From the NCBI GenBank assembly GCA_951406725.2, contig OX597815.1, positions 143,096,001-143,160,000 of the forward strand: a stretch of DNA of 64,000 nucleotides, given 5' to 3'. The position numbers were made by a program, and so were the translations under genes. Below the pieces are notes generated by a model. That model was not told where the DNA came from. It did not search any database and saw only the letters and a program-made list of their open reading frames with translations. Of this stretch, positions 9,225 to 56,215 are shown piece after piece. Position 1 is the stretch's first letter; the number at the start of each line of letters is the position of its first letter. Source of the DNA: Octopus vulgaris. Lineage: Eukaryota.

Positions 9225-9225
9225 G

Positions 9226-9673
<448 letters not shown>

Positions 9674-18960: not shown

Positions 18961-19665
18961 TTATATTTTGCATTTGCGGCTCCGTTGGTGGCTAATGAGC
19001 CCTGCTCTTGACAAGCACACACGACTGCAAACATTGCAGACCAAGCTTTCCCCATTCACTATACGAGCCGTGCGCTTTCGCACAGCTCGCCTAAGTTCTT
19101 CATGCTGGATACGTGCTCTCTCAAAAGTGTCGATCCCCTCCTTAACCTGCTTCCTCCATCTGTGGTGATGACAGGCATTGTTCTCCCAGTCAGTGTCCTG
19201 CATATCAAAGGCCTTTAACGAGGACTTAACACAGTCCTTAAATCGCAGCCTTGGTTTCTGCCGGAGTCTCCTTCCATTCACAAGTTCTCCATAGAGCATC
19301 TGCTTAGGAATCCTTCTATCCTCCATTCTAATAAGGTGTCCAGTCCAACGCAACCGGTGCTTGTGTACCATCGCCTCAATACTCAAGATATCAGCTGTCC
19401 TCAGCATCTGTGTGTCTGGAATTTTTGAGGTCCAGTCAACATTGAGAATGTGTCTGAGACATCTCTGATGAAAACGTTCAAGGACCCTTACCTGACGTTT
19501 GTACAGAGTCCATGTCTTACATGAGTAGAGAAGCACTGTCAGTACACAAGCACGGTACACAGCAACTTTTGTTCTCCTTGAGATGCCATGTTGGGACCAG
19601 ACACGAGACTGAAAAGACCAGAAGGAATTTGTTGCTCTCTGCAACCTGAAAGATATTTCCCTCAT
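18961..19665 (-). CDS. RTE LINE ORF, C-terminal part
   Basis: TKVAVYRACVLTVLLY..RLRWTGHLIRM..RIPKQMLYGEL..CNVCSRVCLSRAGLISHQR (RTE/BovB-type C-terminus). Confidence 0.88.
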   Translation of the reverse strand: MREISFRLQRATNSFWSFQSRVWSQHGISRRTKVAVYRACVLTVLLYSCKTWTLYKRQVRVLERFHQRCLRHILNVDWTSKIPDTQMLRTADILSIEAMVHKHRLRWTGHLIRMEDRRIPKQMLYGELVNGRRLRQKPRLRFKDCVKSSLKAFDMQDTDWENNACHHHRWRKQVKEGIDTFERARIQHEELRRAVRKRTARIVNGESLVCNVCSRVCLSRAGLISHQRSRKCKI

Positions 19666-21046
19666 CCAGGGAGCAAGAACGGCTGAGTGTGCTGCCTAGG
19701 TAGACAAACTTGTCTACTACCTTCATAATTGTTCCTTCAACCAAGATAGCTGGTTCTATATATGGATTTCCTGGTGCAGGCTGGAACATTACATCAGTCT
19801 TGTCCAGGCTAATGCTGAGTCCAAATGCCCTGCAAGAAGCAGAAATGCAATTCATGAGTATTTGCATGTCATCCACTGTATGAGTGACTAAGTCATAGTC
19901 ATCTGCATAAAGGAGGTCACGAATAAGAGACTGGGAAACCTTTGAATTGGCAGCAAATCGGCGAAGATTAAAGAGGCGGCCAGAAGATCGATATCTGACA
20001 TATATTCCCAGAGAGCTAACCTTAGCAAAAGCATGAGTAAAAGTGGCAGCAAAGTACAAAGAAAAGAGAGTTGGGGCAAGGATGTCACCCTGCTTAACAC
20101 CATTCTCTACAGGAATAGGTCCCGCCATGGCACCACCAACATTGACCCAAGCCTCCATCCCATCATGAAATGATTTAATTATAGATACAAAGTGATCCGG
20201 ACATCCAAGTTTGCCAAGTATTTTCCATAGAAAGGCCCTATTTTCAGTATCAAAGGCCTTAGTTAAATCAATGAATACCTGGACAAGATCCATATTCTGC
20301 TCATAGCACTTCTCCTGCATCTGTCTTGCTGTGAAAATCATATCCATTGTCCCCCTACCAGATCGGAAGCCACATTGAGATTCAGATAGGACATCATTTA
20401 CGAGACACCCATTCAGACGGGTAAGAAGAATATTTGCCAGAACCTTGCCAGCAGCTGATAGTAGAGCAATACCTCTGTAGTTACCACACATTGTTCTGGC
20501 TCCTTTTCCTTTATATAGAGGAAGAATAATTGCATCCTTCCAGTCCTTAGGGATTGCACCATCCCTCCAGACTGCACTAATAAGTTCATGAAGGGACTGT
20601 GTGATGCAATTACCACCAAATCGCAAGACCTCAACACAAATTCCATCCTTTCCAGGTGCCATACCAAGATTCAATTTACTTATTGATGTCATTACTTCAT
20701 GTATTGATGGCGATGAGTCTAAGGAGTCAATGATAGGTCTTTGTTTCATAGTATCAATCACTGTTTCATCCACAACTGACTCATGGTTTAGGAGTTCAGA
20801 GAAGTGTTCGATCCAGCGACCTGTGATTTCTGTTGATTTGGTAAACAGAGTGGAAGACTCCTTGGAAAGCAAAGGAGCTGATGTGGAGCTCTTAGGTCCA
20901 TAAGCTCGCTTCATAAGATGGTAAAGCTTCTTGTTGTCATTTGCATCAGCAGCAGCCTGAACATCACGAGCAAGATCCTCCCACCAAGTGTTCTGCATCT
21001 TCCTGAGAGATCGCTGTAGTAGTGATTTTACAGTTATAGTGGGCAA
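19517..21046 (-). CDS. RTE LINE ORF, reverse transcriptase part (frameshift near 19660)
   Basis: APGKDGI, NYRGIALLS, QCGFRSGRGTMDMIF, FIDLTKAFD, GVKQGDILAPTLF, LYADD, FVYLGS. Confidence 0.9.
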   Translation of the reverse strand: MPTITVKSLLQRSLRKMQNTWWEDLARDVQAAADANDNKKLYHLMKRAYGPKSSTSAPLLSKESSTLFTKSTEITGRWIEHFSELLNHESVVDETVIDTMKQRPIIDSLDSSPSIHEVMTSISKLNLGMAPGKDGICVEVLRFGGNCITQSLHELISAVWRDGAIPKDWKDAIILPLYKGKGARTMCGNYRGIALLSAAGKVLANILLTRLNGCLVNDVLSESQCGFRSGRGTMDMIFTARQMQEKCYEQNMDLVQVFIDLTKAFDTENRAFLWKILGKLGCPDHFVSIIKSFHDGMEAWVNVGGAMAGPIPVENGVKQGDILAPTLFSLYFAATFTHAFAKVSSLGIYVRYRSSGRLFNLRRFAANSKVSQSLIRDLLYADDYDLVTHTVDDMQILMNCISASCRAFGLSISLDKTDVMFQPAPGNPYIEPAILVEGTIMKVVDKFVYLGSTLSRSCSLDEGNIFQVAESNKFLLVFSVSCLVPTWHLKENKSCCVPCLCTDSASLLM

Positions 21047-21242
21047 GTGCTAGACTTCGCTGCACAGTAGACAGTTCTCTGTGCAGCAACACACTATGGG
21101 CATGGCGCTTCACCACTAATACATACATACATACAGACAGACAGACGTACGTACGTACATACATACATACATACATACATACATACATACATACATACAT
21201 ACATACATACATACATACATACATACATACATAAAGCTTTTG

Positions 21243-39680: not shown

Positions 39681-40042
39681 TACTATTGCCGAACAAAGCC
39701 TTGTGAGTTGAATTGGCTGATGGAAACTGAAATAAGCTTGTTGTATCCATACATGTGTGTATGTATGTATGTATGTATGTATGTATGTATGTATGTATGT
39801 ATGTATGTGTGTGTGTGTGTGTATGTATGTATGTGTGTGTGTGCGTTTCTATCTGTGTTCGTCCTCAACCACCGCCTGATAACTGGTGTTGGTTGGTTTA
39901 CGTTCCCGTAACTTAACGCTTCGACAAAAGGTTCTGATACAATAAATATGTACTGAGGTCGATTCATTAGACTTAAGCTCTTCAAGGTGGTGCTCCAGCA
40001 TGGCTACAATCTAATTACTGATGCAAGTAAAAGATAAAAGAT
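39110..40042 (+). mobile_element. abundant SINE split at its internal (TA)n by a fold-back insertion
   Basis: Head and 5' half 39110-39272; repeated middle piece and 3' half 39678-40042. Confidence 0.7.
39374..39576. repeat. perfect 55-bp inverted repeat around a 93-bp spacer
   Basis: Arms 39374-39428 and 39522-39576 are exact reverse complements. Confidence 0.97.
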
Positions 40043-40049
40043 ATTGATT

Positions 40050-40267
40050 TCAAAATTTGATACAAAGCCAGCAACTGCGGGTAAGGGGGTTAGTCGATTA
40101 CATTGACCCCCAATTCTCGCTCCACTGCTACTTATTTCATCGAACAAGAAAGGAGGAAACTCCAAGTCGACCCGGGCGGAATTTGAACTCAGAAAGTAAA
40201 AAAACCAGACGCAATGCTGCTAAGCATTTTGCCTGATGTGCTAACGATTCTACCAGCTCCTTGCCTT
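40050..40267 (-). mobile_element. tRNA-derived SINE (family of 6853-7085)
   Basis: aagtcgacccgggcggaatttgaactcagaa..gctaacgattctaccagctc. Confidence 0.8.
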
Positions 40268-40292
40268 TAAAAGATAAAAGACATTATACAGA

Positions 40293-40450
<158 letters not shown>

Positions 40451-40963
40451 CCTCTGTGCTTCTGTGTCCGTATGTGTGTAGCTGAATTGATGTTACTGTT
40501 TTCGTATCATTTGACACTTGCTACAGAAAAGTGTCGGTTTCTAATAAAGAAGCAAAGTTCCATCGTTGAAATTCGGTGAACATCGAGAATGTATTGTTAG
40601 ACTTTCATATATTAAGTTTTGAGCTTACATATATTTAAGTATTCCCCTTACAGATTGTATTCCTAAAATACGTTTTAGCATTATCGATGCGCTTAACTTT
40701 GCCTCGATCGACAACAAAAAATATGCGAATACAATAGCATAATATTCCAGTGGCTATGGGTAAAATTGGGATGATGTTAATAACGATGAAGATGATGACG
40801 ATGATTACGATGGGGGGGGTTCTAATTCAGGTACAAGCCCTGAAAGCTTGAAGGGAGGGATTCGTTGATATCATCGACTCCAGTACTTGATTTGCACTCT
40901 ATCGTCCAGAGAGGGATAAACGGCAAAACGAACCTATAATAATAATAATTCTATACAATGCAG

Positions 40964-41068
<105 letters not shown>

Positions 41069-41093
41069 TGTGCGTGTGTGTGTGTGTATAAAA

Positions 41094-41300
41094 AGTAATC
41101 CCTTGATTATCGCGGGTGTTATGGTCCAAAACCTTCCGTAATAGGTGAAAATCGGCGAAGTAGAAACAGTACTGTATTGCATATATTTTATAATTTCTTT
41201 ATATTTATTTTATTGTAAAGGCAAAACACCAAGGAAGAATCGACGTAAGCTTAAAGGATAAACCGCGATAAGTAAGCTGCGATATGGCAAGGGATTACTG
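41094..41300. mobile_element. Tigger-type MITE
   Basis: TIRs agtaatcccttgattatcgcgg and ctgcgatatggcaagggattactg-TA. Confidence 0.75.
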
Positions 41301-42267
41301 TATATGTATATAAAGATTATCAGCACATACTTAACGTGTATGCTTTGTGCATTTACCAGTAGGCTGTTATTGAGGTGGTGGATGCTAAAACACCGGATGG
41401 TAAAGCGCCGAGTGATAAAGCACCTTAGAGCAATGGACAGGCGAGATAACTCACCTACAATCCCATCTAGGAAATACACAAAGCATATACGTTAAGTATA
41501 TGTGGTTGTTAATGTTTATTACGTGTGTGTTGTTTCTATTTCATGTTTGAATTTGTTCTTACATATGCATTGTCCGGGCATACCTGCACGTTGTTTTGCT
41601 TGCACGCTATGAGCATATAAATTATGGACTGGTGAAACTATTTATCTCCAATCCTGATCGGGTACATGACGTCGACAAGCCACAAAAATGGTGAAACATC
41701 GATGTCCATCACACCTACTTGAATGGGCCTCGATACGCCGAAACTTGAGCTACAAAATGCCCCAAAAGATCTTTTTTGGTGTTGCTGCTAACTTGAACAT
41801 GGTCTGCGACAATTTTTGGCCGAAACGTATCTGAGTTTATCTAAGTCAAGTTATAAATGCATGCATACATGCTCGCGCGCGTATTCAGAAAAATAGCTTC
41901 TCTATCCTCAGGTTTCCGACGGACAAATCACTTCTGACAGTAAAATCAATATGAATTGCCATTGCCGGTTATTTGCACTGTCATACTATATCCGTTACCG
42001 TTAAACTCATCGTCATACTTTTCATATGCAGAGTAAATAATTCTCACTAAACATTAGTTAAAGTTTTTATTTGCACATTAAATACAACGCATTTCATCAG
42101 CAATGAAAAACGAAATTGAAATACAAAAAAAAAATTATGAATATCAGGTTTACTCAATATGTACACGCTAAAAAAATGAACAGATCCAAGTTATTTTTAA
42201 ACATAGAATCACAAAATAACATGCAGCTTGAAGATAGCACGGCTTAAATTGAAGGAAGAAAAGAAAC

Positions 42268-42670
42268 ATTCTAAAAAGACAAATTACGAGCAATGCCTCT
42301 TAAATAATGCAGTGTTTTACGATTTTGTTATGCATTGACGATGCATTGAATCCACGCTACCCGATGTATTTTCTTTTTACGGAGTGGAATTTCTGCACCG
42401 TCGATATAATGTTTGATTATTGCTTCGTTTCTAGATTGTACCTTTTGTATTTTTTTTTCTTCAAGATGTTTATCAATTTCCAGATGATGGAATGGAGTTT
42501 TTTGGCTTTGAATTTCTTTGTCATTGTTCATAAAATGCGACATATTTACACTGCGAACAGAACATTTAAACAATGTTTAGCGATGTATGTACTCTTCGGA
42601 TAAAAAGTATAATGAAGAATTTTCTGACAATGTATTGGCAATATGTTCTTGGAACCTGACGCGAGTTTTA
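42268..42670 (-). pseudogene. degenerate MULE (Mutator-like) transposase C-terminus
   Basis: ..PSIWKLINILKK..HYIDGAEIPLRKKK..IQCIVNA..HYLRGIARNLSF*, resembling MULE termini (YLRAIAHN). Confidence 0.6.
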
Positions 42671-42766
42671 TGCGTTATAGATAGATAGATTGATAAATAG
42701 ATATGTGCGTATACATATATATACACTCGTTTTTATGTGTATATACACACACATATACACATGTGC

Positions 42767-42797
<31 letters not shown>

Positions 42798-42885
42798 CAT
42801 ACATGCATACATGCATGCATACATACATACATACATACATACATACATACATACATACATACATACATACATACATACATACATA

Positions 42886-43200
42886 CATGGTGGCTACCCA
42901 CTCGTTATCGAGTATGGCCATTGCGCGAAGCTTAATCAATGTTGCTATCGTGCAATGCCTGTGCAAGAAGATTTTTTTTTAAGTGAGGAAAGGCTATGTA
43001 CTGAGTCAATCCCACTCACTAAGCAACAGCAACCATAATCCGAAAAGAAGAACAAATCAACATCATCGGTAACCACTGAGCCGCAGGTTTTATGTCGGAG
43101 TTATCCCAGTCACCTGAGTTACCTTCTCCTAGAAGGATGCCCTAACAAAGGCTAGGAGTCCTTCACTCCCAATGGTTTAACCGCGCGATCGGGTATTCAG
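42886..43200 (-). mobile_element. non-autonomous RTE-dependent element (bipartite type)
   Basis: 3' end 29/39 identical to the RTE tail at 18887-18925 followed by (TATG)n; ttgttagggcatccttctaggagaaggtaactc recalls the RTE 5'UTR motif. Confidence 0.65.
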
Positions 43201-43340
43201 TCCGATTATTTCTATGTCCCCGCGCATGATACAGCCTTAAGACATTTATTGGATGAGATGAGATTCCGTTTTTCAAATAGAAGAAAGAAAATTTTCAAGC
43301 TAATGTGTGTTTTGATGTTGAGGGTGTGTGTGTGTGTGCG

Positions 43341-43429
<89 letters not shown>

Positions 43430-43636
43430 AACATCAACGTTGAAGTTGATTTTAATCTTCCATTATTTAATACTGAGTCTTCGTACCACCAAACTCGGAG
43501 TTTTTCTGAGCCACCGACTTTGTATAAAAGTTGTCTCTAATTAAAACCAAAACTCGTGATCAATATATTTCTTTAGATCAGAAACACTGACCATTACTGC
43601 AAAACATGTGAGATGACATGGTTTTACGATGTTTCT

Positions 43637-44833
43637 ATTATTTACATTATTTACATTTGACAGATATTTGTCCTCATTTTACTTGTTGTTCACACGATGT
43701 TTTGGTTGATGAACTCTCCAGCCTTCATCAGGTATCCTGGGAGAATTTCGAACCTGGATTCTCATTCCTAAGGTATTTTTTCGATGTTATTATTATTACT
43801 TTTCAGGTCACTGCTTGAAATCGAAATCTTGGGGTTAGTAGCCCGCGCTCTTAACCACTACGCCATATGCCCGTGGGCTATTTTGGAGTGAATTTTAGGG
43901 CTTATAGATCTAATATTTTCCTATCCTTGCTTAATACAGGTTCCCATATGTTATTCATATATGCACTTGATCTGCTTAGGAGGTTATTATGTCCTAGTAT
44001 ATGTGCTGCCTCTTTTAGTTTTCGTATTTTCCCGTGGTGTTCACTGTCTATTATTTTAACTTCATCCCACAAGGGTGGGGTGTCTCCATTTTCCATACAT
44101 GATCAGCTATACCCGATTTATCAATATCTCCTCGTGTCACAGCTTTGCGTTGTTCCTCTGCCTTTATTTTGAGTGGGCGGCATATTTCGCCTTTGTATAA
44201 ACTACCACAGCGGCATGGGATGGAGTACACGCAGTCTTTGTTCATATTATCTTCTGTTGGTGGCTTTACTCGAAGGAGATATTTGCGAAGTGTTGTATTA
44301 CTCTTGAATACTTTCCTAATGTCGTATGGGCAGCATTATTTTTTAAGATTGTTACTTAGATTGATCATTTCTTTGTGGTATGTATCAGGATGGCTACTTT
44401 TATTTTTTGCTCGATGGTTTAGGCATTGAACAATCCCTCTCTTTACGCTATTATTCTATGACATAATAACCTCCTAAGCAGACCTAGTGCAGATATGAGT
44501 AGCCTATGGGAACCGATATTAAGGAAGGATAGGAAAATATTAGATTTATAAGCCCTAAAATTCACTCCAAAACACCCACGGGCATATGGCGTAAGATTCC
44601 GAGTTCAATTCCAAGCAGTGACCTGAAAAACAACAATAATAATAACATCGGGAAAATACCTTAAGAATGAGAACCCAGGTTCGAAATTCTCTCGGGACAC
44701 CTGATGACGGCTGGGGAGTACATCGGCCGAAATGTCGTGTTAACAACAAACAAGATGAGGAGGACAAATATCCGTCAAATGTAAATAATGCAAATAAAGT
44801 ACATAATTCCTCATCTCTCAAATATAGAACTGT
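43637..44833 (-). mobile_element. Penelope-like element: GIY-YIG ORF remnant (43902-44455) with inverted terminal repeats
   Basis: VKRGIVQCLNHRA, CVYSIPCRCGSLYKGE..SGIADHVW..WDEVKIID..RKLKEAAHI; 43637-43993 is the reverse complement of 44460-44800. Confidence 0.9.
44696..44741 (+). ncRNA. minimal type I hammerhead ribozyme motif
   Basis: gacac-CTGATGA-cggctg..cggcc-GAAAtGTC-gtgtt; more degenerate copies at 43691-43736 (-) and 52252-52297 (+). Confidence 0.75.
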
Positions 44834-44844
44834 GTTTCTATTAT

Positions 44845-45380
44845 TGTTTGTTATTTAGGCTAAGTTCAGCTTTGACCTTTGACCTATAGTGATGTGTATT
44901 CCAGCATGATCCTGCTATCTTATATATAACTACATATTCCTATACCGTCTTTATTGTTTGAAAACGACACGTTAAAGTTTACTAGAAATTTGGTTGTTAT
45001 TTAAAGCAGGTCGATAAACCCCAAACAACGCTCGCTAAATCAAAGAATAACTACATGAAAATAAAGTTGTGATGAGGCGGTATTTCTCAATGATATTCGC
45101 GACGCAAGTGAAGTTGATGACAATCACAAATAACTATTACAGCTCTATCACGGTTTTGTTTGTTGTTAGTTTGACTTTTCTTCACACCTCTATACGTTTG
45201 TTCAACCTGCTAGAAATAACTGCTAAATCTCTCTTAACTAACATCCTACCGTTTTAAAGAAGAGAGCTGGATAATGTACTTATAGATAATCTAGCTCAGT
45301 TAAAGACATGACTGTTAAAACTAGAACCTCTTCATTATCGCTCTGCTAGACCAGAATTGGCCTGGGGCTATCAAGAACAA
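44845..45380. repeat. two oppositely oriented copies of an old dispersed repeat
   Basis: gaaatttggttgttatttaaagcaggtcga (~44985-45015) vs tcaacctgctagaaataactgctaaatctc (~45202-45231); related pieces near 14930, 50115 and 50330. Confidence 0.5.
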
Positions 45381-45769
45381 AGTGTAGTAGTGTAAACTGA
45401 CGCTACTAAATCTTATTGATGAAGCATAAGCTTTACAACACCTTCACTTTGTAATGTTCTCTGCATCAGTAGACATATGTTCACGTAAGCAATCAATATT
45501 TAAATAAATCACCTATAAAACAGCAATGAGATTTTTGGCCAGCCACTTATTCTCACAGCTGTCTGTTCTCATTACTGGCCAAAAAATCAGTAATTTGTAC
45601 AAAACCATTCTAGAAGTTCAGGACTTAGAAATGGAGTAGAATAGTTTCATTTAACCATTTATTCCTAATACCATTGTTATTTGTTTTAATTTAACTTTTT
45701 AATAGTAATTTATTATCACGTTGCTACACTGTCCTCTGCTTACTTTGCTACGCTGAAATACTTGACTTC

Positions 45770-46250
45770 ATACACTTAGCTTTTTCTGTATTTCCCCTTT
45801 TATGCGCTGCTCAAAACATTTTGCCCAGTTCTGAAACACATATTTCCAGACCTCTGGAAATCCTCCCGTGATCACGCATTTCCCACAAATATTAATTTGC
45901 AAATGACCTGAACTGAACACTAATTGCATGAGCCTCAACAGTGCTGGAGACGCTATGAATATCATTGCCAAATTCTCTTTCCCACTGGTAGATATTTTTG
46001 GCGACCAGGGTTAATTTCGCTCCTTCACGCGGAACATATACAGAGATCATAACGAATTCCTCTCCTCCAGTAGATGGGTAAAACAGAAGTCGGGTTTATT
46101 TCTATTCTCCGTTCTATAAGCAAAAGATGACCATCAATAACATTGCAGAGACTTTTGCCAATTTTGTCTTGCCGGCCTTATAGTAATATCTCTGTGTGAC
46201 TATTTACTGGTTGCATACCCAAGACTTTTTGCACAATCCATCTGCAAATT
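45770..46250 (-). pseudogene. very degenerate mariner-like transposase
   Basis: Broken ARQ..SKVSAMLLMVIFC and EDFQR..FQNWAKCFEQRIKGE segments. Confidence 0.35.
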
Positions 46251-46360
46251 ATGAATATTGTGGGGATTACGTAATTCCGAGCTCCCGGAAACAGTTGTCA
46301 AGTTAAGAAACTTTCTGTGCTTTTATTAGTATTCTCTATCTGTTATGCTCTATGTGTGTC

Positions 46361-46408
<48 letters not shown>

Positions 46409-46709
46409 CATACATTATATATACATACATATATATAAATATATATATGTGTGTGTGTATGTATGTATGTATATGTATGTATATATATATATATAGATGT
46501 GTATATAAGTGTTTGACTTTATAAATATAGGTAGTTATATGTATCTACGTATATCTATTTGTGTATATATATGTGTAAGTATTTTATCATTAATTAAAAT
46601 CTTAGAGTAGCAAGAATATTCATAGAAAAATATTGATAGAAAAGTTCTTAGTTACTAGTGGTCCAGCGAGAAAGAAAAAATTAGTCAATAGACTATATAT
46701 TATTCAAAG

Positions 46710-47122
46710 AAGAATACAGTGTACGTTTAAACACAAAAGAGATACCCAAAGAATTGGATATCTGACTCGCTAGAAAGAGCAGTTGAATCTCCAAGCCACC
46801 AATTGTTGTAATTCCGAAAGTGATTGGAAAATAAAAACTTTTACCTTAATCCTAGACCCTGCAAGGTTTCTGTAGACTTAAATACAGACTGAAATAAAAT
46901 GATTTCAGCCTATATCTGGCGCTGCTTCTTCAGTAGGTTGCCAGGACTGAACACATAGGCACGGAGCGATAAATAACCCGCCTCGTGTCTGTAGGTTCTA
47001 AAAATTTCCAATCACTTTCGGAATTACAATTGGTGGCTTGGAGATTCAACTGCTCTTTCTAGCGAGTCAGATATCCTATTCGTCGGGTATCTCTTTTGTG
47101 TTTGAACGTACACTGTATTCTT
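46710..47122 (-). mobile_element. Penelope-like fold-back relic: ~120-bp inverted arms enclosing a hammerhead motif
   Basis: Arms 46710-46830 and 47005-47122; minus strand ccta-CTGAAGA..GAAAcct-tgca-gggTC-tagg at 46939-46848. Confidence 0.7.
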
Positions 47123-47414
47123 ATATGTAAGTATATATATGCATGCATGTTTGTATTTATGTAAGTATATGTATGTATGTATTATGAATATGTGGTATAT
47201 GTGCATATGTGTGAAGCTTAATTGTGTCTATCTGCATCACATTCTCCATATCAGCTCGCTTGCACTACTCTTATACCCACTCTTGACGGCGTGGACCTAG
47301 TCCTGGACGAAGGATTTGGAGTTTAAGTTCAATTCATTGGAACACTATTACGTGTTCTCTGTACTGTGCATATCTAGCTATCACCTATGCTATATACTGT
47401 AGACACACACATGC

Positions 47415-47474
<60 letters not shown>

Positions 47475-47534
47475 GAAATATTAAAATAACTAAGTCTCTC
47501 TAAAAGAGAACAGCGGCAGCGTTCCCGGAAAATA

Positions 47535-48097
47535 CATACATACACATACATACATAGCATAAAACACTTCTCCAAGATGCCACCCGGAAATGTGATTGAC
47601 AAGCAAACGTCTTACCACACTGCCGCACACACGTGTGTGTGTGTTTGTGCTATGTGTGTGTGTGTTTGTGGTATGTGTGTGTTTGCCCCCCCTCTACACA
47701 CACACACACACACCATCACTGCTTGGCAATTGATATTTAATTGTTCACACCTTAACTCAGCAGTTAGGCAAAAGAGACCCAATAAGTACTGGGATCGATT
47801 TCTATTATTGAAAACAAGTGGATGTATTCCACCGAAACTAGGTAAATAAAACCATCGAACAGAGATTGTCGGAAGCGACACCTACTGGCTGGCTACGCTG
47901 CATTGAAAAGGGGCAATACCCTGAAACGCGTCTGTAGCTGCCGGTCAAGTAGTGTGGAGCGACTGACCTCCCTTGTTCGAAGGTTATATGGATACAGTTT
48001 GTGTATCAAATAGCTAACTTAAGGCGATGGCCTCATGGAGCTAATAAGCGGACAGCTTTTTTCTTATTTTTATAAGAATGCCATATTAGTATGGCGA

Positions 48098-48161
<64 letters not shown>

Positions 48162-48359
48162 CATATACATATATATATATATACATATACACACGTATAT
48201 ACATGTGTGTATGTGTATATATATAAACATATATGTAATATACTTATATATATATATATATATACATATATATATACATATACATATATATATATATATA
48301 CATATACACACGTATATACATGTGTGTATGTGTATATATATAAACATATATGTAATATA

Positions 48360-48398
<39 letters not shown>

Positions 48399-48671
48399 GC
48401 ATGCATACATACACATACATACATAGCATAAAACACTTCTCCAAGATGCCACCCGGAAATGTGATTGACAAGCAAACGTCTTACCACACTGCCGCACACA
48501 CGTGTGTGTGTTTGTGCTATGTGTGTGTGTGTTTGTGGTATGTGTGTGTTTGCCCCCCCCCCTCTACACACACACACACACACCATCACTGCTTGGCAAT
48601 TGATATTTAATTGTTCACACCTTAACTCAGCAGTTAGGCAAAAGAGACCTAATAAGTACTGGGATCGATTT
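47535..48671 (+). repeat. ~267-bp near-identical direct repeat (47535-47801, 48404-48671) flanking a hammerhead-like insert
   Basis: Copies differ only by slippage and one substitution that I could see; insert has ggggcaataccct-GAAACGCGTC-tgtagc. Confidence 0.9.
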
Positions 48672-49489
48672 GTTCGACTAGAAGATGTTTAAGCATGGCT
48701 GCAGTCCAATGAGTGGATCAAGTAAAAGATAAAAGATATACGACACACACATGCGCGCTTTAGAGTACACATGCCAACACATCTAAGAATAGATTTTCAA
48801 TTGAAAGAGCCCAATAAGCGACTTAAACTAAATCTAATTATAAATTCAATTATAAATATAAATTAATTAAAGCCATGACAATAATGTGTTTGTGGATAGC
48901 CTAGAAATGATGAAATCTAGAACGTATACAATGAAATGTAAATATTATCTTTAAGCCGAGGAGTAATATATACTGCTTCGATATACAGGGGAAAATATCT
49001 TATCAGAAGATAGAAGAAAGACGATATACATATGCACATGTATGTGTGTATTTGTGTGTATGTGTATTTGTGTGTGTGTGTTTGTATGTCCTCATGTACA
49101 AAGGAACAGGAGTAGTCTTGTGATGTTTAAAATTTTGGTTGACAAGCTTTTGGCTGGCTTCTGTCTCACTTCGAGTCGTGTTTTGTTCTTTAGTCTCAAG
49201 TTATCATACAACTTCTGAATCGAACTTGGTTCTTAAAACCGTGTGGAAGCCCATGGCTTTATGTATGTGTCTGTTGCTTGTGCGTGTGTGTGTGTGTGTG
49301 TGAAATGGCATGTGTGTATGCTTTGTCGATTTGTACTTGCTAAGAAACATTATGTATTGTGAAGATATGCTAATATATCGTTGCAGTATATTGTCTTACA
49401 CTATAAACATGTAATCTTATGTGAAGAAGATCTTGAAATATTTCCAACAGCTGTAAATCACGATTAGATCCTGCTTTATATTTTAAAGT

Positions 49490-49735
49490 GGAGACGCGTG
49501 ACTTAGTGGTTAGTGTGTTGAACTCATGATCGTAAGGTTGTGGTTTCGATTCACGGACCGAGCGATGCGTTGTGTTCTTGAGCAAAGACTTCATTTCACG
49601 TTGCTCCAGTCCACTCAGCTGGCAAAAATGAGTAATCCTGCGACGGAACGGCGTCCAGTCCAGGTGGGTAATTTCTACGCCACTGAAACCTGGAAACCGG
49701 CCCTTATGAGCCTGGCATGGCTCAAGAAGAAACAT
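49490..49735 (+). mobile_element. CORE-like tRNA SINE
   Basis: gtgacttagtggttag..ggtttcgattca; ttgtgttcttgagcaaagacttcatttcacgttgctccagtccactcagctgg; tail gaaaccggcccttatgagcc..ggctcaagaag. Confidence 0.85.
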
Positions 49736-49754
49736 TTATATCTTAAAGTCAAAA

Positions 49755-49975
49755 TGTGGTGAACTAGCAGAATTGTTAGCACGCCGGGCGAAATGCTTAG
49801 CGATAATTCGTCTGTCTTCCCAATCTGAGTTCAAATGTCGCCGGAGTCGACTTTATCTTTCATCCTTTCGAGATCGATAAAATAATCGCTGGTGAGTAGA
49901 GAACTGCGATCGGTGTTATCGACTTGCCATCTCCCAGAAATTGCTGGCCTTGAACCAAAATTTGAAACCAATATC
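49755..49975 (+). mobile_element. tRNA-derived SINE (family of 30690)
   Basis: gaactagcagaattgttagcacgccgggcgaaatg..gagttcaaatg..gtcgactttatctttcatcctttcgagatcgataaa. Confidence 0.85.
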
Positions 49976-50909
49976 TCCCTATTTACTGTTGATGTGATAA
50001 TATTATTATTTAACTTCGGTAGACCTGTGATAAAACACGTAACTATTTCGGCTTACCGTTTTCCCAGACTTAGCACAATCTTCCTTTATTCAAAACGGTA
50101 AAGTGTAATCTAGGAAAATTTAGCTGCTATTTTTAACAGCTCAAGCAACTTTATGACTGTTGTTATTCTTTAGTCCCAGATTATATTTGATCGTGAAAAC
50201 CTATGACCAACCGCGTGCAGTCATAACAATATGTCATTATATTAAGTTGTACATTTTTCAATACAGCATTTATAACGATGATAGCATGTTTTTAAGATAG
50301 ATATGCTTCTTATGAAGTTTCCATGATGGCTGCTATTTCTAGTAAGTACAGTAGCTATGCAGTGATACTCTGTTTGATGTCTCCATTTCAAAGAAGATTA
50401 AACATGATTGTTGCTATACTATTGCACAACTATAGCTGTACTATTTGCATGACACCAGGTATACTATACCATGATTCTTGCCGCACAATTTACATTGGTA
50501 TGCTCCTTTCCATACTATATTGCATGCTTCTTGCTATAATATAGAATGGTAATGTTTTCGCACGGTTCCTGTATGATTCATTCACCGAGAGACAATGTTG
50601 AAACGCTTTAATATCAAAGCTAGATGTACGCTATTGAGATTGATGAGAAATGCATAATGAAGATTGATGACTATCACGAAATATTACACACATGTAATAC
50701 TGACTATAATATCACAGAAACATCACACACACACACACACACACATGTACTGGTGGCAATATTACCACAGAAATATCATACACTTATATATAATGTACTT
50801 AAAGTAAGTTAGCTTAGCAGTGGGATCCATCTCTCTGCTGCATAGCTGGAAGGATTTGATTTCAGAAATAAAAACTACCGAAATATTAATTATTTATACA
50901 GCCAATGTG

Positions 50910-51050
50910 AAGGCGAGTAAACTCGTGCTTAGAGTTTTGGTCTCATAATCTTAAGGTCATGAGTTCGAACATTTAGCTAGGTGGCGCGTTGTTTCCTTGA
51001 ATAACGCACATCATTTCAAGTTCAGTCTACTCAGCTGAAATAAGTACTGA
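50910..51050 (+). mobile_element. degenerate CORE-like SINE head
   Basis: gagttcgaac..gcgttgtttccttgaataacgcacatcatttcaag..ctactcagctgaaataagt. Confidence 0.6.
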
Positions 51051-51482
51051 ACCAAATGTCAGTAGATGCAGAAGGTGTGTATGTCTGCTCGTGAGGACAT
51101 GGGCAATTAAAACAACTAGGGAAAGTATGCTACAAGCTGCCAAGTCGTGGTCGCTTTCGAGTGACGGCTGTGGGCTGCTTCTTCTTCTTCTTCCTATCAG
51201 AACTCACGCCATTAGCCACAAAGAATAATCTCTAATTCGAGCCTACTCTAAGCTACTAAGAATGCGTGTAGCAACTTGAAGATCCACCCACCACATGCGA
51301 TAGACTGGCGGTTGCACAGGCTCGAAAACTACGTTGTTATCCTCATTCCGTAAACGGTGGCTTTTAACGGGTGGAGATCTGAACCATCCTGGGGTACAGA
51401 GGATTCGCAATCTAGACTAGGGTCTGGAAGTTTACTACACCATCGTGGGTTACACCAAGGTTCCTCTGCTTTGTGGCAGAAT

Positions 51483-51660
51483 TAGGAAGAAAGAGTGAGA
51501 GAAAGTTGTGGTGAAAGAGTACAGTGGGCTTCACCACCATCCCCCGCCGGAGCTTAGGTGTTTTTGCTCAATAAACACTCACAATGCCCGGTCTGGGAAT
51601 CGAAACCGCGTTCTTATGACCGCGAGTCCGCTGCCCTAACCACTGGGCCATTGCGCCTCT
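51483..51660 (-). mobile_element. SINE head and body (family of 9226)
   Basis: Reverse complement of 9226-9412. Confidence 0.85.
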
Positions 51661-52027
51661 ACACCGCTATGGTTACATGATATTACCTTGCTTAGTTCTC
51701 AAAGCAAAACTATTTTATTTCAGCTCCAAGTTGAATCTATTTCATTGCACATACATTATTAATTCCTGCTTATAGGGTGCATGGAAATACACACTTTCTT
51801 ATTTTAACTGATTACAAAGGTTTCTTATATAATTTTTGTCAAAATCAGGAAATTCCACCTCTCGGTGGGTTTATGAATTGGAGACACTTATAGCCTTTAT
51901 TGAGCCGTTGGTTCACCAAAGAAACCGTTGTTGTTGTTTTTTATCGTATTTCAGTAAAACTTGGTAGAGTACATGCTTATAATTATTTCCTTGACTTGTT
52001 GTTCCGTATGGAATCGAACTAGTATAA

Positions 52028-52095
52028 CATATGGAGTAGTGGTTAAGAGCGCGGGCTACTAACGCCAAGATTCCGAGTTCGATTCCAAGCAGTGA

Positions 52096-52185
<90 letters not shown>

Positions 52186-52378
52186 CAACAACAACAACAA
52201 CAACATCGAAAAATACCTTAGGAATGAGAACCCAGGTCGGAATTTCCCCAAAACACCTGATGAAGGCTGGCGGGTATATCAGCCGCAAAGTTGTGTTAAC
52301 AACAAACAAGATGAGGACAAATATCCGTCAAATGTATATAATGTACATAATTCGTTATCTCTTAAATATGGAACTGTA
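52028..52378 (+). mobile_element. stand-alone tRNA-head + (TAA)n + hammerhead module of the Penelope repeat
   Basis: Matches 44583-44833; A box tggagtagtgg 52032-52042, B box gagttcgattcc 52075-52086, ctgatga 52257-52263. Confidence 0.85.
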
Positions 52379-53015
52379 GTATTGTAACTTGTGATGAAAA
52401 GTGGATTCTGTACAATAATAAAAAAACCTTTTTCGCGGTGGTTGGATCAAAATGAAGCACAGAAAAAAATTTCCTAAACCCGAGCGCTTCAAAAAGAAGG
52501 TTATGGTGAGTGTTTTGTAGTTTACTGCTGGGCTCATCCACTATTACTTCTTAAAACACTGAAAAACCATTACTGCAGAAATATATTGCCATGAAATTGC
52601 CAAAATGAATGAAAAACTGCTACTCCTCCGTCCCAGACTGGTCAACTGAAGGGGGCCAATCATTCTTCATGACAATGCTAAACCACACGTTTCACTAACG
52701 ACACTTAAGAAGTTGAAGGAACTTGGCTACGAAGTTCCTCCCCACCCATCTTATTCCCCAGACCTTTCTCGTACCGTCTACCATTTTTCAAGCACCTTGA
52801 GGGTTTCCTGTGTGAGAAGACTTTCAAAAATCAAACCGATACTGAAAGTGTGTTCAAAGAGTTCATCAGCTCCCGAACTTCAGATTTTTATGTTACCAGA
52901 ATAAGCCAACTTGGAACTCGTTGGCAAAAATGTGTTGATTGTAATGGTACTTTGATGAATACAATTTCCGCATTGTTTAAATATATTGTGATGAATTTCA
53001 TGTTCCAAAACGTTT
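52379..53015 (+). pseudogene. mariner transposase, DDD catalytic region
   Basis: IVTCDEKWILYNN..KKKVMVSV..TITAEIYC..ILHDNAKPH..PHPSYSPDL..RWQKCVDCNG. Confidence 0.9.
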
Positions 53016-53442
53016 TACTGACCCAGAAATTCGCAAGGATGAAAGCTAAGTTGACCTCAGGTTCATTTGAACTCAGAATGTAAAAGACTAACCGAACACC
53101 TTCAGTCTGGATATTCTGCTAATTCAATGCCCAAATGATTTCTAAGATAAGCACAGGGCGAGAATGGTAAGCGATTTCATCAATGCTAGAAACTGGTTGG
53201 TATTCATTTTATCGACCCCAAGGAAAGAAAAGAAGAACTGAACCCTAGTGTAAGATTCGAACATAGGACATAAAAAGACTTAACTATATATTAAAATTAT
53301 TCTTTCCGAATCTCCGCAGCCTCTGCGCCAATCCAGCACCTATTTTAAGGATAGAATAATATTATAAAGCATAGCCTTGCAATTGTTTATAGTTAGATAA
53401 TAAGATAAGATTTATTCTTACATTGCTACAGATTCAAAACTA

Positions 53443-53528
<86 letters not shown>

Positions 53529-53536
53529 TAATAATG

Positions 53537-53621
<85 letters not shown>

Positions 53622-53649
53622 TAATAACAATAACAACAACAACAACAGC

Positions 53650-53747
<98 letters not shown>

Positions 53748-53780
53748 TAACAATAACAACAACAACAACAGCAGCAGCAG

Positions 53781-53843
<63 letters not shown>
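53443..53843. repeat. (AAT)n/(AAC)n/(AGC)n compound array with higher-order duplication
   Basis: Seen directly. Confidence 0.95.
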
Positions 53844-53844
<1 letters not shown>

Positions 53845-54589
53845 TTGCGATTCAGGCTACATGAAACCAATGAATCAATTACCTTCTAGATTCAATTTAT
53901 TCATTCGAAGATGTTGTAAAACAATATATGAAATCTTTCCCTACAAATATTATTATTGTATCACTTCAGTTTATTAATGCGACATCTTGCCGCCTGTTAT
54001 CTCACTCAAACTATGTTCAATGTTCAACAACATTTGCAAATATTTTCATAGAATTTTCTAGCGTTTACATTTCCATCTCTTTACCAGTTCTACACACTCA
54101 TGTATACGTATACATATTCGTACATTCATCTATAAACACATAACTTTACGTAATTTTCCAAATGTATACACGATTCTGCGTAGGTTTTATACGTAGAAAT
54201 ATATACATAGATATTTCAAGCCAATATCTCTATGCAAACTCCTTTACGTTGTTATTTGACTTATATATGGGTATGTATGTATGTGCATGTGCGTGTATTT
54301 ATATCTACGTATATTATATATGTTAATAATTCCCACATGTTCATATGAGCATATATTCATACATAATACATACATACATACATACTTACAAACGTAAGCA
54401 CATATTCATAAGTATAAGTGTATATATGTAAGTATTTGTGAGAGAGTATATGTAAGAATTCCCGACTACATACATATAGGGCGCGCATAAATACATTCAA
54501 TATTCTTATGCAATTTCACATCGTCTCACAAAGGATAGAGAGAACAAGGCATTTAATAAACACACACGAGCACACACGAATTTTTATTA

Positions 54590-55814
54590 TATTAGGTCAT
54601 AAAATAATGTGGTTTTTCAATTGAATGGACCAAAAGTCGGAGAAGGACCGGATAAACTACCTGCATCAAATTGCTGTAAAATCAGGTAGTAATGTTACAT
54701 TGTACTTATTCTTAAGTGCAAGTTTTGAAGAGTGCAGTTCGATTTTAACACTTTTTCAAAGCTATAACAGAAGTGGAAAAGGAGCATATTCTGTATATTT
54801 TGCCTTATGAGTTCAATAAATGCAGCAACGCAACGGAAAGTGCGAGGAATATTAATGTAGTATATGGGGATTGGACAACAAGCGTAAGCCAGTGTCAGTG
54901 GTGATTCTAGAAATTCCGAGACGAAAACTACAGCCTAGAAGACGATCCTCGTCCTAGAAGTTCAGTAGAGATCGACGAGAACGTCCTGCAAACTACAGTG
55001 GAACAAAATCCCAACATAACTGATGAGGAACTAGCAGATAAGCTTGGAGTTGACCCGCGTGCCATCGGAAAAGTCAGAAAATTTTTGTCAATGGGTTCCT
55101 CACAAATTTTCCGAGTCTAATTGCGCGCAGAGGGTGAATGTGTGCTCTCCTTTGAAACTCTCTCGAATGAAACTTTTTTGAACAGAATAGTGACTGGTGA
55201 CGAGATATGGATTCTCTGTAAAAATGTCAAGCGCTGAAGACAGTGGGTAGGGAAAAGAGAAACACCAGCACCCCAGGCTAAAGAAAGTTTTCGCATGAGT
55301 AAGGTGTTGTTATCTGTTTGGTGAGATATGAAATGTTTAGTCCACTTTGAACTTTTAAACCCAAACCAAGCGATAACAAAGGAGATCTACTGCGAACAGC
55401 TTGAGCGGCTTAAGTCAGCGCTAGAAGAAAAACGACCATCTTCGGTTTCAATACGATAATGCTCTGCACTTACAGCGAGGCTGACATTCCAAAAGCTGGA
55501 GCAGTTTGAATGGGAGACGCTGCCTCACCCACCATATTCACCGGACATTGACCCCATCTGCTTATCATTTATTCCGCAGTCTTCAAAATCATTTGGACAG
55601 AAAATATGAACTAGAACAGTACTAGAAGAGTATTTTTCGTCACGAACAAGTGAAATTTAGAAAAGTGGCTTTCCAGGTCTACCAGATAGATGAAAGAGCA
55701 TAGTAGAAAATGAAGGAGAGTGTATTCTAGATTTAAAAAAGAACTTTGTTTATCTTAATTTTGAAAAATAAAAGAAGTATTTAAAAGCCGCATTATTTAT
55801 GGGATGACCCATTA
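54590..55814 (+). mobile_element. full-length degenerate mariner element (~1.2 kb)
   Basis: TIRs tattaggtcat..aaataatgtggttttt and aaaagccgcattatttatgggatgacccatta; WVPHK, RIVTGDEIWI, PHPPYSPDIDPSAYHLFRSLQNHL. Confidence 0.9.
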
Positions 55815-55984
55815 GTTTCGTTCTTCATTCTCTTTTTATGTCCTTCACGTTGTATCTCTTTTTATCACCAGTTCACACATATCCTTTTTCTCTTCCTCCT
55901 GTTTCTACTAATCTTCTTTTCCTTTTCTTCGTGACCTTTTTGTCTTCCAATATATACCCGTGTATATATATATATATATATATA

Positions 55985-56215
55985 TTCTTTTATTCTTTTA
56001 TTTGTTTCAGTCATCTGACTGCGACTATGCTGGAGCACCGCCTTCAAGATATTTGTCAAAGAAAATGGAACCCAGGACTTATACTTTGTAAGACTAGTGC
56101 TTATTCTGTTGGTCTCTTTCGCTGAACCGCTTTGTTATAGGAGACATAAACACAGCAGCATCGGTTGTCAAGTGGTGACTGGGGTTGGGGGGGGGCAAAC
56201 ATAGACACACACAAA
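55985..56215 (-). mobile_element. 3' half of the abundant SINE
   Basis: tgtttcagtcatctgactgcgactatgctggagcaccgcc..gcatcggttgtcaag. Confidence 0.8.

Follow-up and report, generated by a model that had tools for sequence, protein, structure and literature searches.

Insertions of Penelope-like elements (PLEs) are marked by inverted arms and by a tail on only one arm (PMC8557442), and the minimal PLE hammerhead ribozyme is described with one additional base ahead of helix II and with a helix III that is palindromic (PMC4209133). Transcription of Penelope in D. virilis is reported to start inside the pseudo-long terminal repeat (pseudo-LTR), at an internal TATA-less promoter (PMC2377424). Elsewhere, the short element Cassandra is transcribed from its own RNA polymerase III (Pol III) promoter through the element (PMC10886601). 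Repeat annotation of the octopus contains many unclassified short interspersed elements (SINEs) and Penelope families and, in the sections cited here, does not give the detail described below (PMC13282606). The present analysis concerns a PLE family found in a 64,000-nucleotide (nt) stretch of the Octopus vulgaris genome (assembly GCA_951406725.2, contig OX597815.1, positions 143,096,001 to 143,160,000, forward strand), hereafter the window. Its pseudo-LTR carries a transfer RNA (tRNA)-like head bearing A and B boxes, and an earlier note had presented the head-bearing unit as a candidate PLE-driven SINE or Pol III retrozyme. The anatomy is that of the pseudo-LTR of an autonomous PLE, not of a separate SINE. 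We consider it probable, from the distribution of genomic copies, that this pseudo-LTR is headed by a Pol III promoter and that short copies arise as its by-products.

Results

A tRNA-like head in the terminal repeat of a PLE

The window holds three copies (A, B and C) of the family's repeat unit. In the element, the tRNA-like head begins 29 nt after the stop codon of an RT/GIY-YIG (reverse transcriptase/nuclease domain) open reading frame (ORF) and leads into (TAA)n, then a minimal hammerhead and, last, a tail of 27 nt. Positions are counted from the first base of the head (+1 = 43872 in copy A), and the part 3' of the microsatellite is numbered D1-D176.

52028 to 52378, plus strand: copy C, an ORF-less pseudo-LTR with the head from +4, microsatellite, hammerhead region and tail
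52028 to 52099, plus strand: tRNA-like head of copy C; A box 52032-52042 with one change, B box 52075-52086 intact
52100 to 52203, plus strand: (TAA)n/(CAA)n spacer of copy C, expanded here
52235 to 52246, plus strand: second B-box-like motif of copy C, degenerate and without an A box; function doubtful
52252 to 52297, plus strand: minimal type I hammerhead of copy C, core broken, core and helix III both mutated
52352 to 52378, plus strand: 27-nt PLE tail of copy C, identical in sequence to the first part of the body in full-length elements
43902 to 44448, minus strand: 3' end of the RT/GIY-YIG ORF of copy A, 5'-truncated and broken; stop codon 43902-43904
43804 to 43872, minus strand: head of copy A; A box 43855-43865, B box hit by a 6-nt deletion, palindrome at -7 to +5
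43637 to 43803, minus strand: remainder of copy A: (TAA)n, short here, the second B-box-like motif at 43743-43754, a hammerhead with a mutated core at 43691-43736, and a 3' end without the tail
44452 to 44833, plus strand: copy B, an inverted arm with ORF end, head with a 29-nt deletion, hammerhead (44696-44741) and tail
43630 to 43642, plus strand: left copy of a 13-base-pair (bp) direct repeat, likely a target-site duplication, overlapping the end of copy A
44833 to 44845, plus strand: right copy of the 13-bp direct repeat

Copies A and B are the two arms of one insertion, whose termini are overlapped by the flanking 13-bp repeat. The parts named by the earlier note (a tRNA-like unit about 30 bp past the GIY-YIG stop, then (TAA)n and a hammerhead) are all in place. 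Its account of a third copy, lacking the Penelope ORF and beginning four bases 5' of an A box with an intact B box, likewise describes copy C correctly. The second B-box-like motif that it listed is there too, but without the conserved C at its end and with no A box to accompany it.

The parent is an autonomous EN+ (endonuclease-bearing) PLE. In the family majority sequence (22 copies), a single frame of 790 codons remains open and encodes an RT domain followed by a C-terminal GIY-YIG domain. RVT_1 was matched on L249. Pfam alone gave no match for the peptides of the window and of L097, and both align to the GIY-YIG region of P0079, a relative confirmed by Pfam (46% for the window peptide). 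Of the 21 EN-anchored loci listed, 17 have the head placed after the stop of the ORF. Among 30 RT-anchored loci, the near-full-length L238 reads head from -2, microsatellite, hammerhead, tail, ORF and head; the same head thus also stands upstream of the ORF, in the layout of a partial-tandem pseudo-LTR. At L226, L243 and L248 the 27-nt tail is the start of the body. Partial-tandem pseudo-LTRs, an inverted truncated arm and a short tail at one end are all as in an EN+ PLE. Just past the tail, the first part of the body recurs three to four times in units of about 25 nt (L238:480-580); together with 9-nt repeats at tail-less 3' ends, this suggests slippage of the RT.

The longest open frame among the matches is 569 amino acids and arms average 92% identity to the consensus, and the family therefore looks inactive. 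Its nearest protein relatives share 60-75% identity. A first metagenome scan and a viral scan found no relative. A quick RT tree contained no named PLE references; going by sequence motifs, the family may belong to the Penelope/Poseidon clade.

Genomic copies pile up at the head

The genome searched comprised 2.8 gigabases in 227 contigs. Thousands of exact matches were found genome-wide, against 0 for reversed-pattern controls, which rules out chance. Exact 20-mers, whose counts are lower bounds, numbered 1,081 at -40 to -21 (the ORF end), 5,148 at +30 to +49 (the head) and 8,646 just past the microsatellite. Counts thus fall 4.8-fold over 50 nt at the edge of the head and only 1.7-fold across the microsatellite. 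An unbiased sample was taken from the first 100 of 5,057 exact matches to a 3' motif, leaving 92 insertions after removal of 8 second anchors. The 3' part of the head is kept in 65 of them. Scored by the longest arm, 5' ends occurred in 7/65 between +18 and +55, in 46/58 between -17 and +17 and in 1/12 between -117 and -18. The corresponding density is 0.037 per nt in the central interval, against 0.003 downstream and 0.0009 upstream; at the flanking rate, the binomial P is about 2e-35. In a separate head-anchored sample, 25 of 30 ends fell between -20 and +8 and one copy ran into the ORF. The genome-wide check proposed by the earlier note, a pile-up at the head in copies devoid of the upstream ORF, thus came out as it had expected, and the random scatter of 5' ends that it had set against its own proposal was not seen. 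As most short copies begin at the head, this segment is likely a promoter for Pol III.

The edge of the pile-up is sharp. In 38 of the 48 ORF-less arms that keep positions -6 to -3, the sequence runs on into a palindromic head copy, and a single arm matches the native upstream sequence over 2 bases (47 arms with at least 12 native bases were classed apart, and two long palindromes were listed separately). From the sharp edge and the palindromic extensions, we infer that the template ends at -6/-7, which is 13-14 nt before the A box and in the place expected of a Pol III start, and that the complementary DNA (cDNA) then snaps back on the palindrome. The same junctions could be explained without any transcription start, were the palindrome at -7 to +5 to fold the growing cDNA on a long template, or were a nuclease to cut the tRNA-like segment. 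The junctions do lie on the palindrome, those 38 arms carry the palindromic extension, and a minor group starts at +1. We nevertheless hold this explanation to be very unlikely: the stem is just 4-5 bp, ends are scattered over -7 to +17 in the manner of a template end, the head lacks a tRNA fold, and the junctions at +1 show microhomology.

A PLE lacking the head also shows a pile-up

A second, young PLE family in the same genome (L251-L280 and L391-L468, for example L259:526-2880 and L395) has many intact 784-codon RT/GIY-YIG frames. It forms 4.4-kilobase (kb) tandem units with an upstream ORF and, behind an intron-like acceptor, a hammerhead whose core is a variant of U3-A8 type. This family, which has no tRNA head, was treated alike as a control (70 of 2,031 matches; arms were counted and not merged into insertions, and 13 were cut at locus ends). 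Its 5' ends also accumulate at one point of the pseudo-LTR: 16 of 64 arms end in a 35-nt interval that precedes the hammerhead by about 150 nt and is a likely start site. Because this happens without a tRNA head, a pile-up is a general mark of the start site of a pseudo-LTR and not of Pol III as such. What is special to the tRNA-headed family is the strength of the pile-up (58/71 arms versus 16/64 in the control, Fisher P 2e-11) and its position at an A-box head. Mapping of 5' ends in this way may place PLE promoters from genomes alone.

These data bear on a further explanation, in which the head is, or sits at, a Pol II promoter; the pile-up would then be an ordinary pseudo-LTR start and short copies would derive from the 5' part of a normal messenger RNA. 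The behaviour of the control fits this explanation, and SINE-borne Pol II promoters are known. So does the internal start of D. virilis Penelope, and the ORF requires a translatable RNA whereas Pol III RNAs are described as lacking a cap (PMC2666806). Three observations make a Pol II start improbable to our minds: the edge lies 13-14 nt before an A box, the pile-up far exceeds that of the control, and the control has a T-rich, intron-like tract ending in AG ahead of its hammerhead, which the tRNA-headed family lacks. To these is added the absence of runs of four T (T4) from the sense strand.

Four T are described as enough to stop human Pol III. The majority sequence has zero T4 in a body of 2,499 nt, and none in the head or in D, as compared with 6-7 T4 in the control family. 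By synonymous shuffles this absence has a P of 0.045-0.05, or 0.019 with freer Phe codons. Across 74 related ORFs the T4 count averages 1.08 of expectation; none of 39 segments of at least 1.5 kb is T4-free and 3 have only one. Runs of four G are absent as well from the tRNA-headed family (P 0.27). The T4-free sense strand hints that Pol III may transcribe the whole element. In related PLE ORFs at L281, L286, L289, L297, L306, L310 and L351 there is zero or one T4 per 1-2 kb.

Origin of the head

A motif scan finds both an A and a B box in the head, the feature expected at the 5' end of a SINE. The cloverleaf was sought and not found: ARAGORN called no tRNA gene anywhere in the window, nor any on the consensus when the threshold was 80 or higher, and Rfam at E<=5 on window positions 40000-56000 matched neither a tRNA nor a hammerhead. 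Searches of the kind suggested by the earlier note, for a tRNA and with hammerhead models, were both negative over these ranges. When compared with 30 genomic tRNAs, the head is closest to two Arg isotypes (44-46 of 73 positions identical), barely above the others, while 51 of 76 positions are identical to the majority sequence of another SINE head in the same genome. That identity makes a SINE origin of the captured head likely. Ordinary tRNA-headed SINE copies with a head resembling the captured one occur in the window at 51590-51660 (minus strand) and near 9225-9310 (plus strand).

One could then suppose that a SINE inserted once into the 3' untranslated region of the PLE and rides passively, its copies being randomly truncated. 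The resemblance to a SINE head agrees with such an origin; the far from random ends and the presence of a head only, not of a SINE body, render this account extremely improbable. The earlier note had also considered that the tRNA and (TAA)n part might exist as an ordinary SINE. No free head-(TAA)n family was seen: 6 of 30 unbiased heads lack the downstream part, of which 3 are interrupted or rearranged and 3 loci (two of them duplicates) are unexplained. In a similarity-ranked set, 5 of 30 heads lack the downstream part, 4 of these 5 having an inverted family arm.

For six single pieces, folding z-scores did not stand out. When copies were compared, neither the two boxes nor the hammerhead core gave a clear sign of better conservation than the rest, in what is a weak test since the copies are neutral. 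In 22 related PLEs whose ORF is followed by a hammerhead, an A and a B box never occur together between the two. In contigs of four further organisms the ORF end and the head are bridged, with loose ends near the head start. In two metagenome contigs, a match to a PLE RT has a tRNA-like sequence some 500 nt upstream of it (L282:2432-2506 and L331:2441-2520), possibly as a chance neighbour. The (TAA)n spacer is often interrupted by LINE-like elements (LINE, long interspersed element), or its 3' part is joined to them (L032, L047, L070, L133, L185, L008, L014); these are presumably (TAA)n-targeting R4/Dong types.

Short copies share haplotypes with ORF-bearing copies

An inverted arm is present in 61 of the 92 insertions. 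Derived variants are shared within 112 arm pairs at 62 of 778 variant sites (8%, against 1.9% after shuffling), and in 95 of the 103 pairs that could be scored a tail is present on exactly one arm. Altogether, the shared variants and the single tailed arm suggest that one RNA source was copied twice per insertion, and we infer that the family's own RT/EN mobilised the short copies. The earlier note's suggestion that the Penelope RT may mobilise the short unit is supported by these inverted arms and by the presence of the 27-nt tail on one arm.

That same note had put the unit forward as a candidate SINE or retrozyme, moving independently of the ORF. In such a case the head-to-tail unit would be a non-autonomous element having its own sources, transcribed by Pol III and moved in trans by the PLE. 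ORF-less copies do outnumber ORF-linked ones about 5:1, and intact short copies would each bear their own internal promoter. A flipped palindrome loop, moreover, occurs in 8 of 38 short arms versus 0 of 47 ORF-linked arms, as would befit progeny of earlier short copies; template switching (L093) can also account for it. At four sites, however, the variants found in ORF-less arms are those found in ORF-linked arms, with about equal frequency in the two classes (pooled loci, partly similarity-ranked). For instance, an A at head position 64 is found in 13/33 arms of one class versus 48/115 of the other, and an A at N7 in 5/26 versus 21/88. Nor were tandem retrozyme arrays seen in the samples of 92 and 30 insertions, where solo and inverted copies dominate with only isolated two-unit cases; the retrozyme reading fails on this point. 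With haplotypes shared between the two classes and the head part of the autonomous element's own upstream pseudo-LTR (L238), hence at both of its ends, these small samples do not support a non-autonomous lineage separate from its partner, and we regard an independent element as unlikely.

The hammerhead

In the family consensus, the core of the hammerhead is intact and helix I measures 5 bp; one additional base precedes helix II, and helix III is palindromic, which is the minimal PLE form (PMC4209133). Related PLEs share this minimal type I architecture within the pseudo-LTR. The minimal hammerhead announced by the earlier note is therefore sound in the consensus, but all three window copies are altered in core or helix III. 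Across 236 arms spanning the motif, 80 keep both core and helix III. Apart from CpG sites, the core has a single frequent variant, at the unconstrained N7 position. Cofolding of two consensus motifs gave an intermolecular structure, which is not a measure of activity. The motif is an ordinary minimal PLE hammerhead, predicted to cut only as a dimer. The higher density of 5' ends around the predicted cleavage site (9 within 11 nt, or 0.0059 per nt, versus 0.001-0.004 nearby) was not accepted as a signal, the junctions showing microhomology at a nearby palindrome.

Other features of the window

Positions 19517-21049 (minus strand) hold a 510-codon RVT_1 frame of an unrelated LINE. A local duplication lies among microsatellites at 47532-47801 and 48401-48671, with a spacing of about 870 nt.

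Discussion

The data are best accommodated by a mechanism in which the pseudo-LTR carries the tRNA-like A/B-box head where other PLEs keep their internal promoter. Pol III transcripts would start 6-7 nt upstream of the head. The family's RT/GIY-YIG protein would then copy these RNAs from the fixed 3' end of the pseudo-LTR, whether the 27-nt tail is present or not, and would often do so a second time in one insertion, which would produce head-to-head arms; at the template end, the cDNA would snap back on the short palindrome at the start. Most genomic copies would thus be ORF-less, SINE-like pseudo-LTRs issued from the same masters as the ORF-bearing copies.

Several points weigh against this proposal. 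Contigs from four runs guessed to be RNA hold the family and carry no start information. An initiator-like word sits near -18, and a few copies have their 5' ends at -19 to -26. Within the weak test afforded by neutral copies, boxes A and B show no better conservation than the remaining head. The control PLE piles up without a tRNA head, so that the pile-up cannot identify the polymerase, and the flipped palindrome loops may mark short copies that were themselves sources. Finally, the start is closer to +1 than the norm in yeast, where tRNA genes are reported to start 10-12 nt before the mature +1 (PMC5356446).

A bolder case can be made for a protein-coding retrotransposon transcribed end to end by Pol III. 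The head would start a 2.9-kb RNA, the ORF would be kept T4-free, the hammerhead, about 130-190 nt before the ORF start, would enable cap-independent translation, and the same promoter would spawn a swarm of SINE-like pseudo-LTRs, some of them acting as sources. Since Pol III RNAs have no cap while viral hammerheads are reported to drive cap-independent translation (PMC13725137), we see this case as testable, though not likely.

If a Pol III-headed pseudo-LTR is indeed what the family carries, it would be the PLE counterpart of the promoter capture in Cassandra and Helenus, here in an autonomous element. It would show how a PLE pseudo-LTR can become a SINE-like hammerhead unit, a plausible route to Pol III hammerhead repeats of the schistosome type. 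It would also let two open questions be tested compactly: the driver of PLE transcription and the purpose of the PLE hammerhead. As for annotation, many thousands of such copies could be misfiled as SINEs. Mapping of 5' ends places a likely start site in the second PLE family as well.

The pairing of a tRNA-like head with a PLE hammerhead pseudo-LTR was not found in print: the literature searched, which lay outside Repbase, Dfam, subscription papers and supplements, where the family may be catalogued, contained no tRNA-headed PLE. Each part of the pairing has its precedents. With EN+ PLEs as described in PMC4209133, PMC8557442 and PMC2377424, the family shares the order of RT and GIY-YIG, the partial-tandem pseudo-LTR, the inverted truncated arm, the tail on one end, the hammerhead with its extra base and palindromic helix III, and a transcript start proposed inside the pseudo-LTR. 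It departs from those accounts in having the A/B-box head and not a TATA-less, Pol II-type promoter with an intron, in its T4-free sense strand, and in that about four in five of the copies reaching the head stop there. Like tRNA-derived SINEs (SINE2), it has an A/B-box head at the 5' end of a unit of about 270-350 nt ending in the 3' end of its partner; unlike them, the partner is a PLE to which the whole unit is native, no independent lineage was found and the simple-repeat 3' tail is absent. Animal non-LTR retrozymes (PMC7229834; bioRxiv 10.64898/2026.07.22.740005) are similarly short hammerhead units; related to the pseudo-LTRs of PLEs, they are proposed to derive from PLEs and to rely on PLE enzymes, but they are head-to-tail tandems yielding circular RNA, with no tRNA head mentioned in the sections cited, whereas the octopus copies are solo or inverted. 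The SINE-like hammerhead repeats Sm-alpha and Sj-alpha of schistosomes (PMC6765202) also place an apparent Pol III promoter before a hammerhead in a short retroposed unit. They are non-coding and often tandem, with canonical hammerheads and, in the part of that report cited, no autonomous parent shown, while here the module is the terminal repeat of a coding element. The TRIMp3 elements Cassandra, Helenus and Ajax (PMC10886601) resemble the family in having a Pol III promoter derived from a small RNA, of proposed SINE origin, in their terminal repeat. They are non-autonomous LTR elements under about 1.3 kb, unlike the octopus element, a PLE with a 2.3-kb ORF and a hammerhead.
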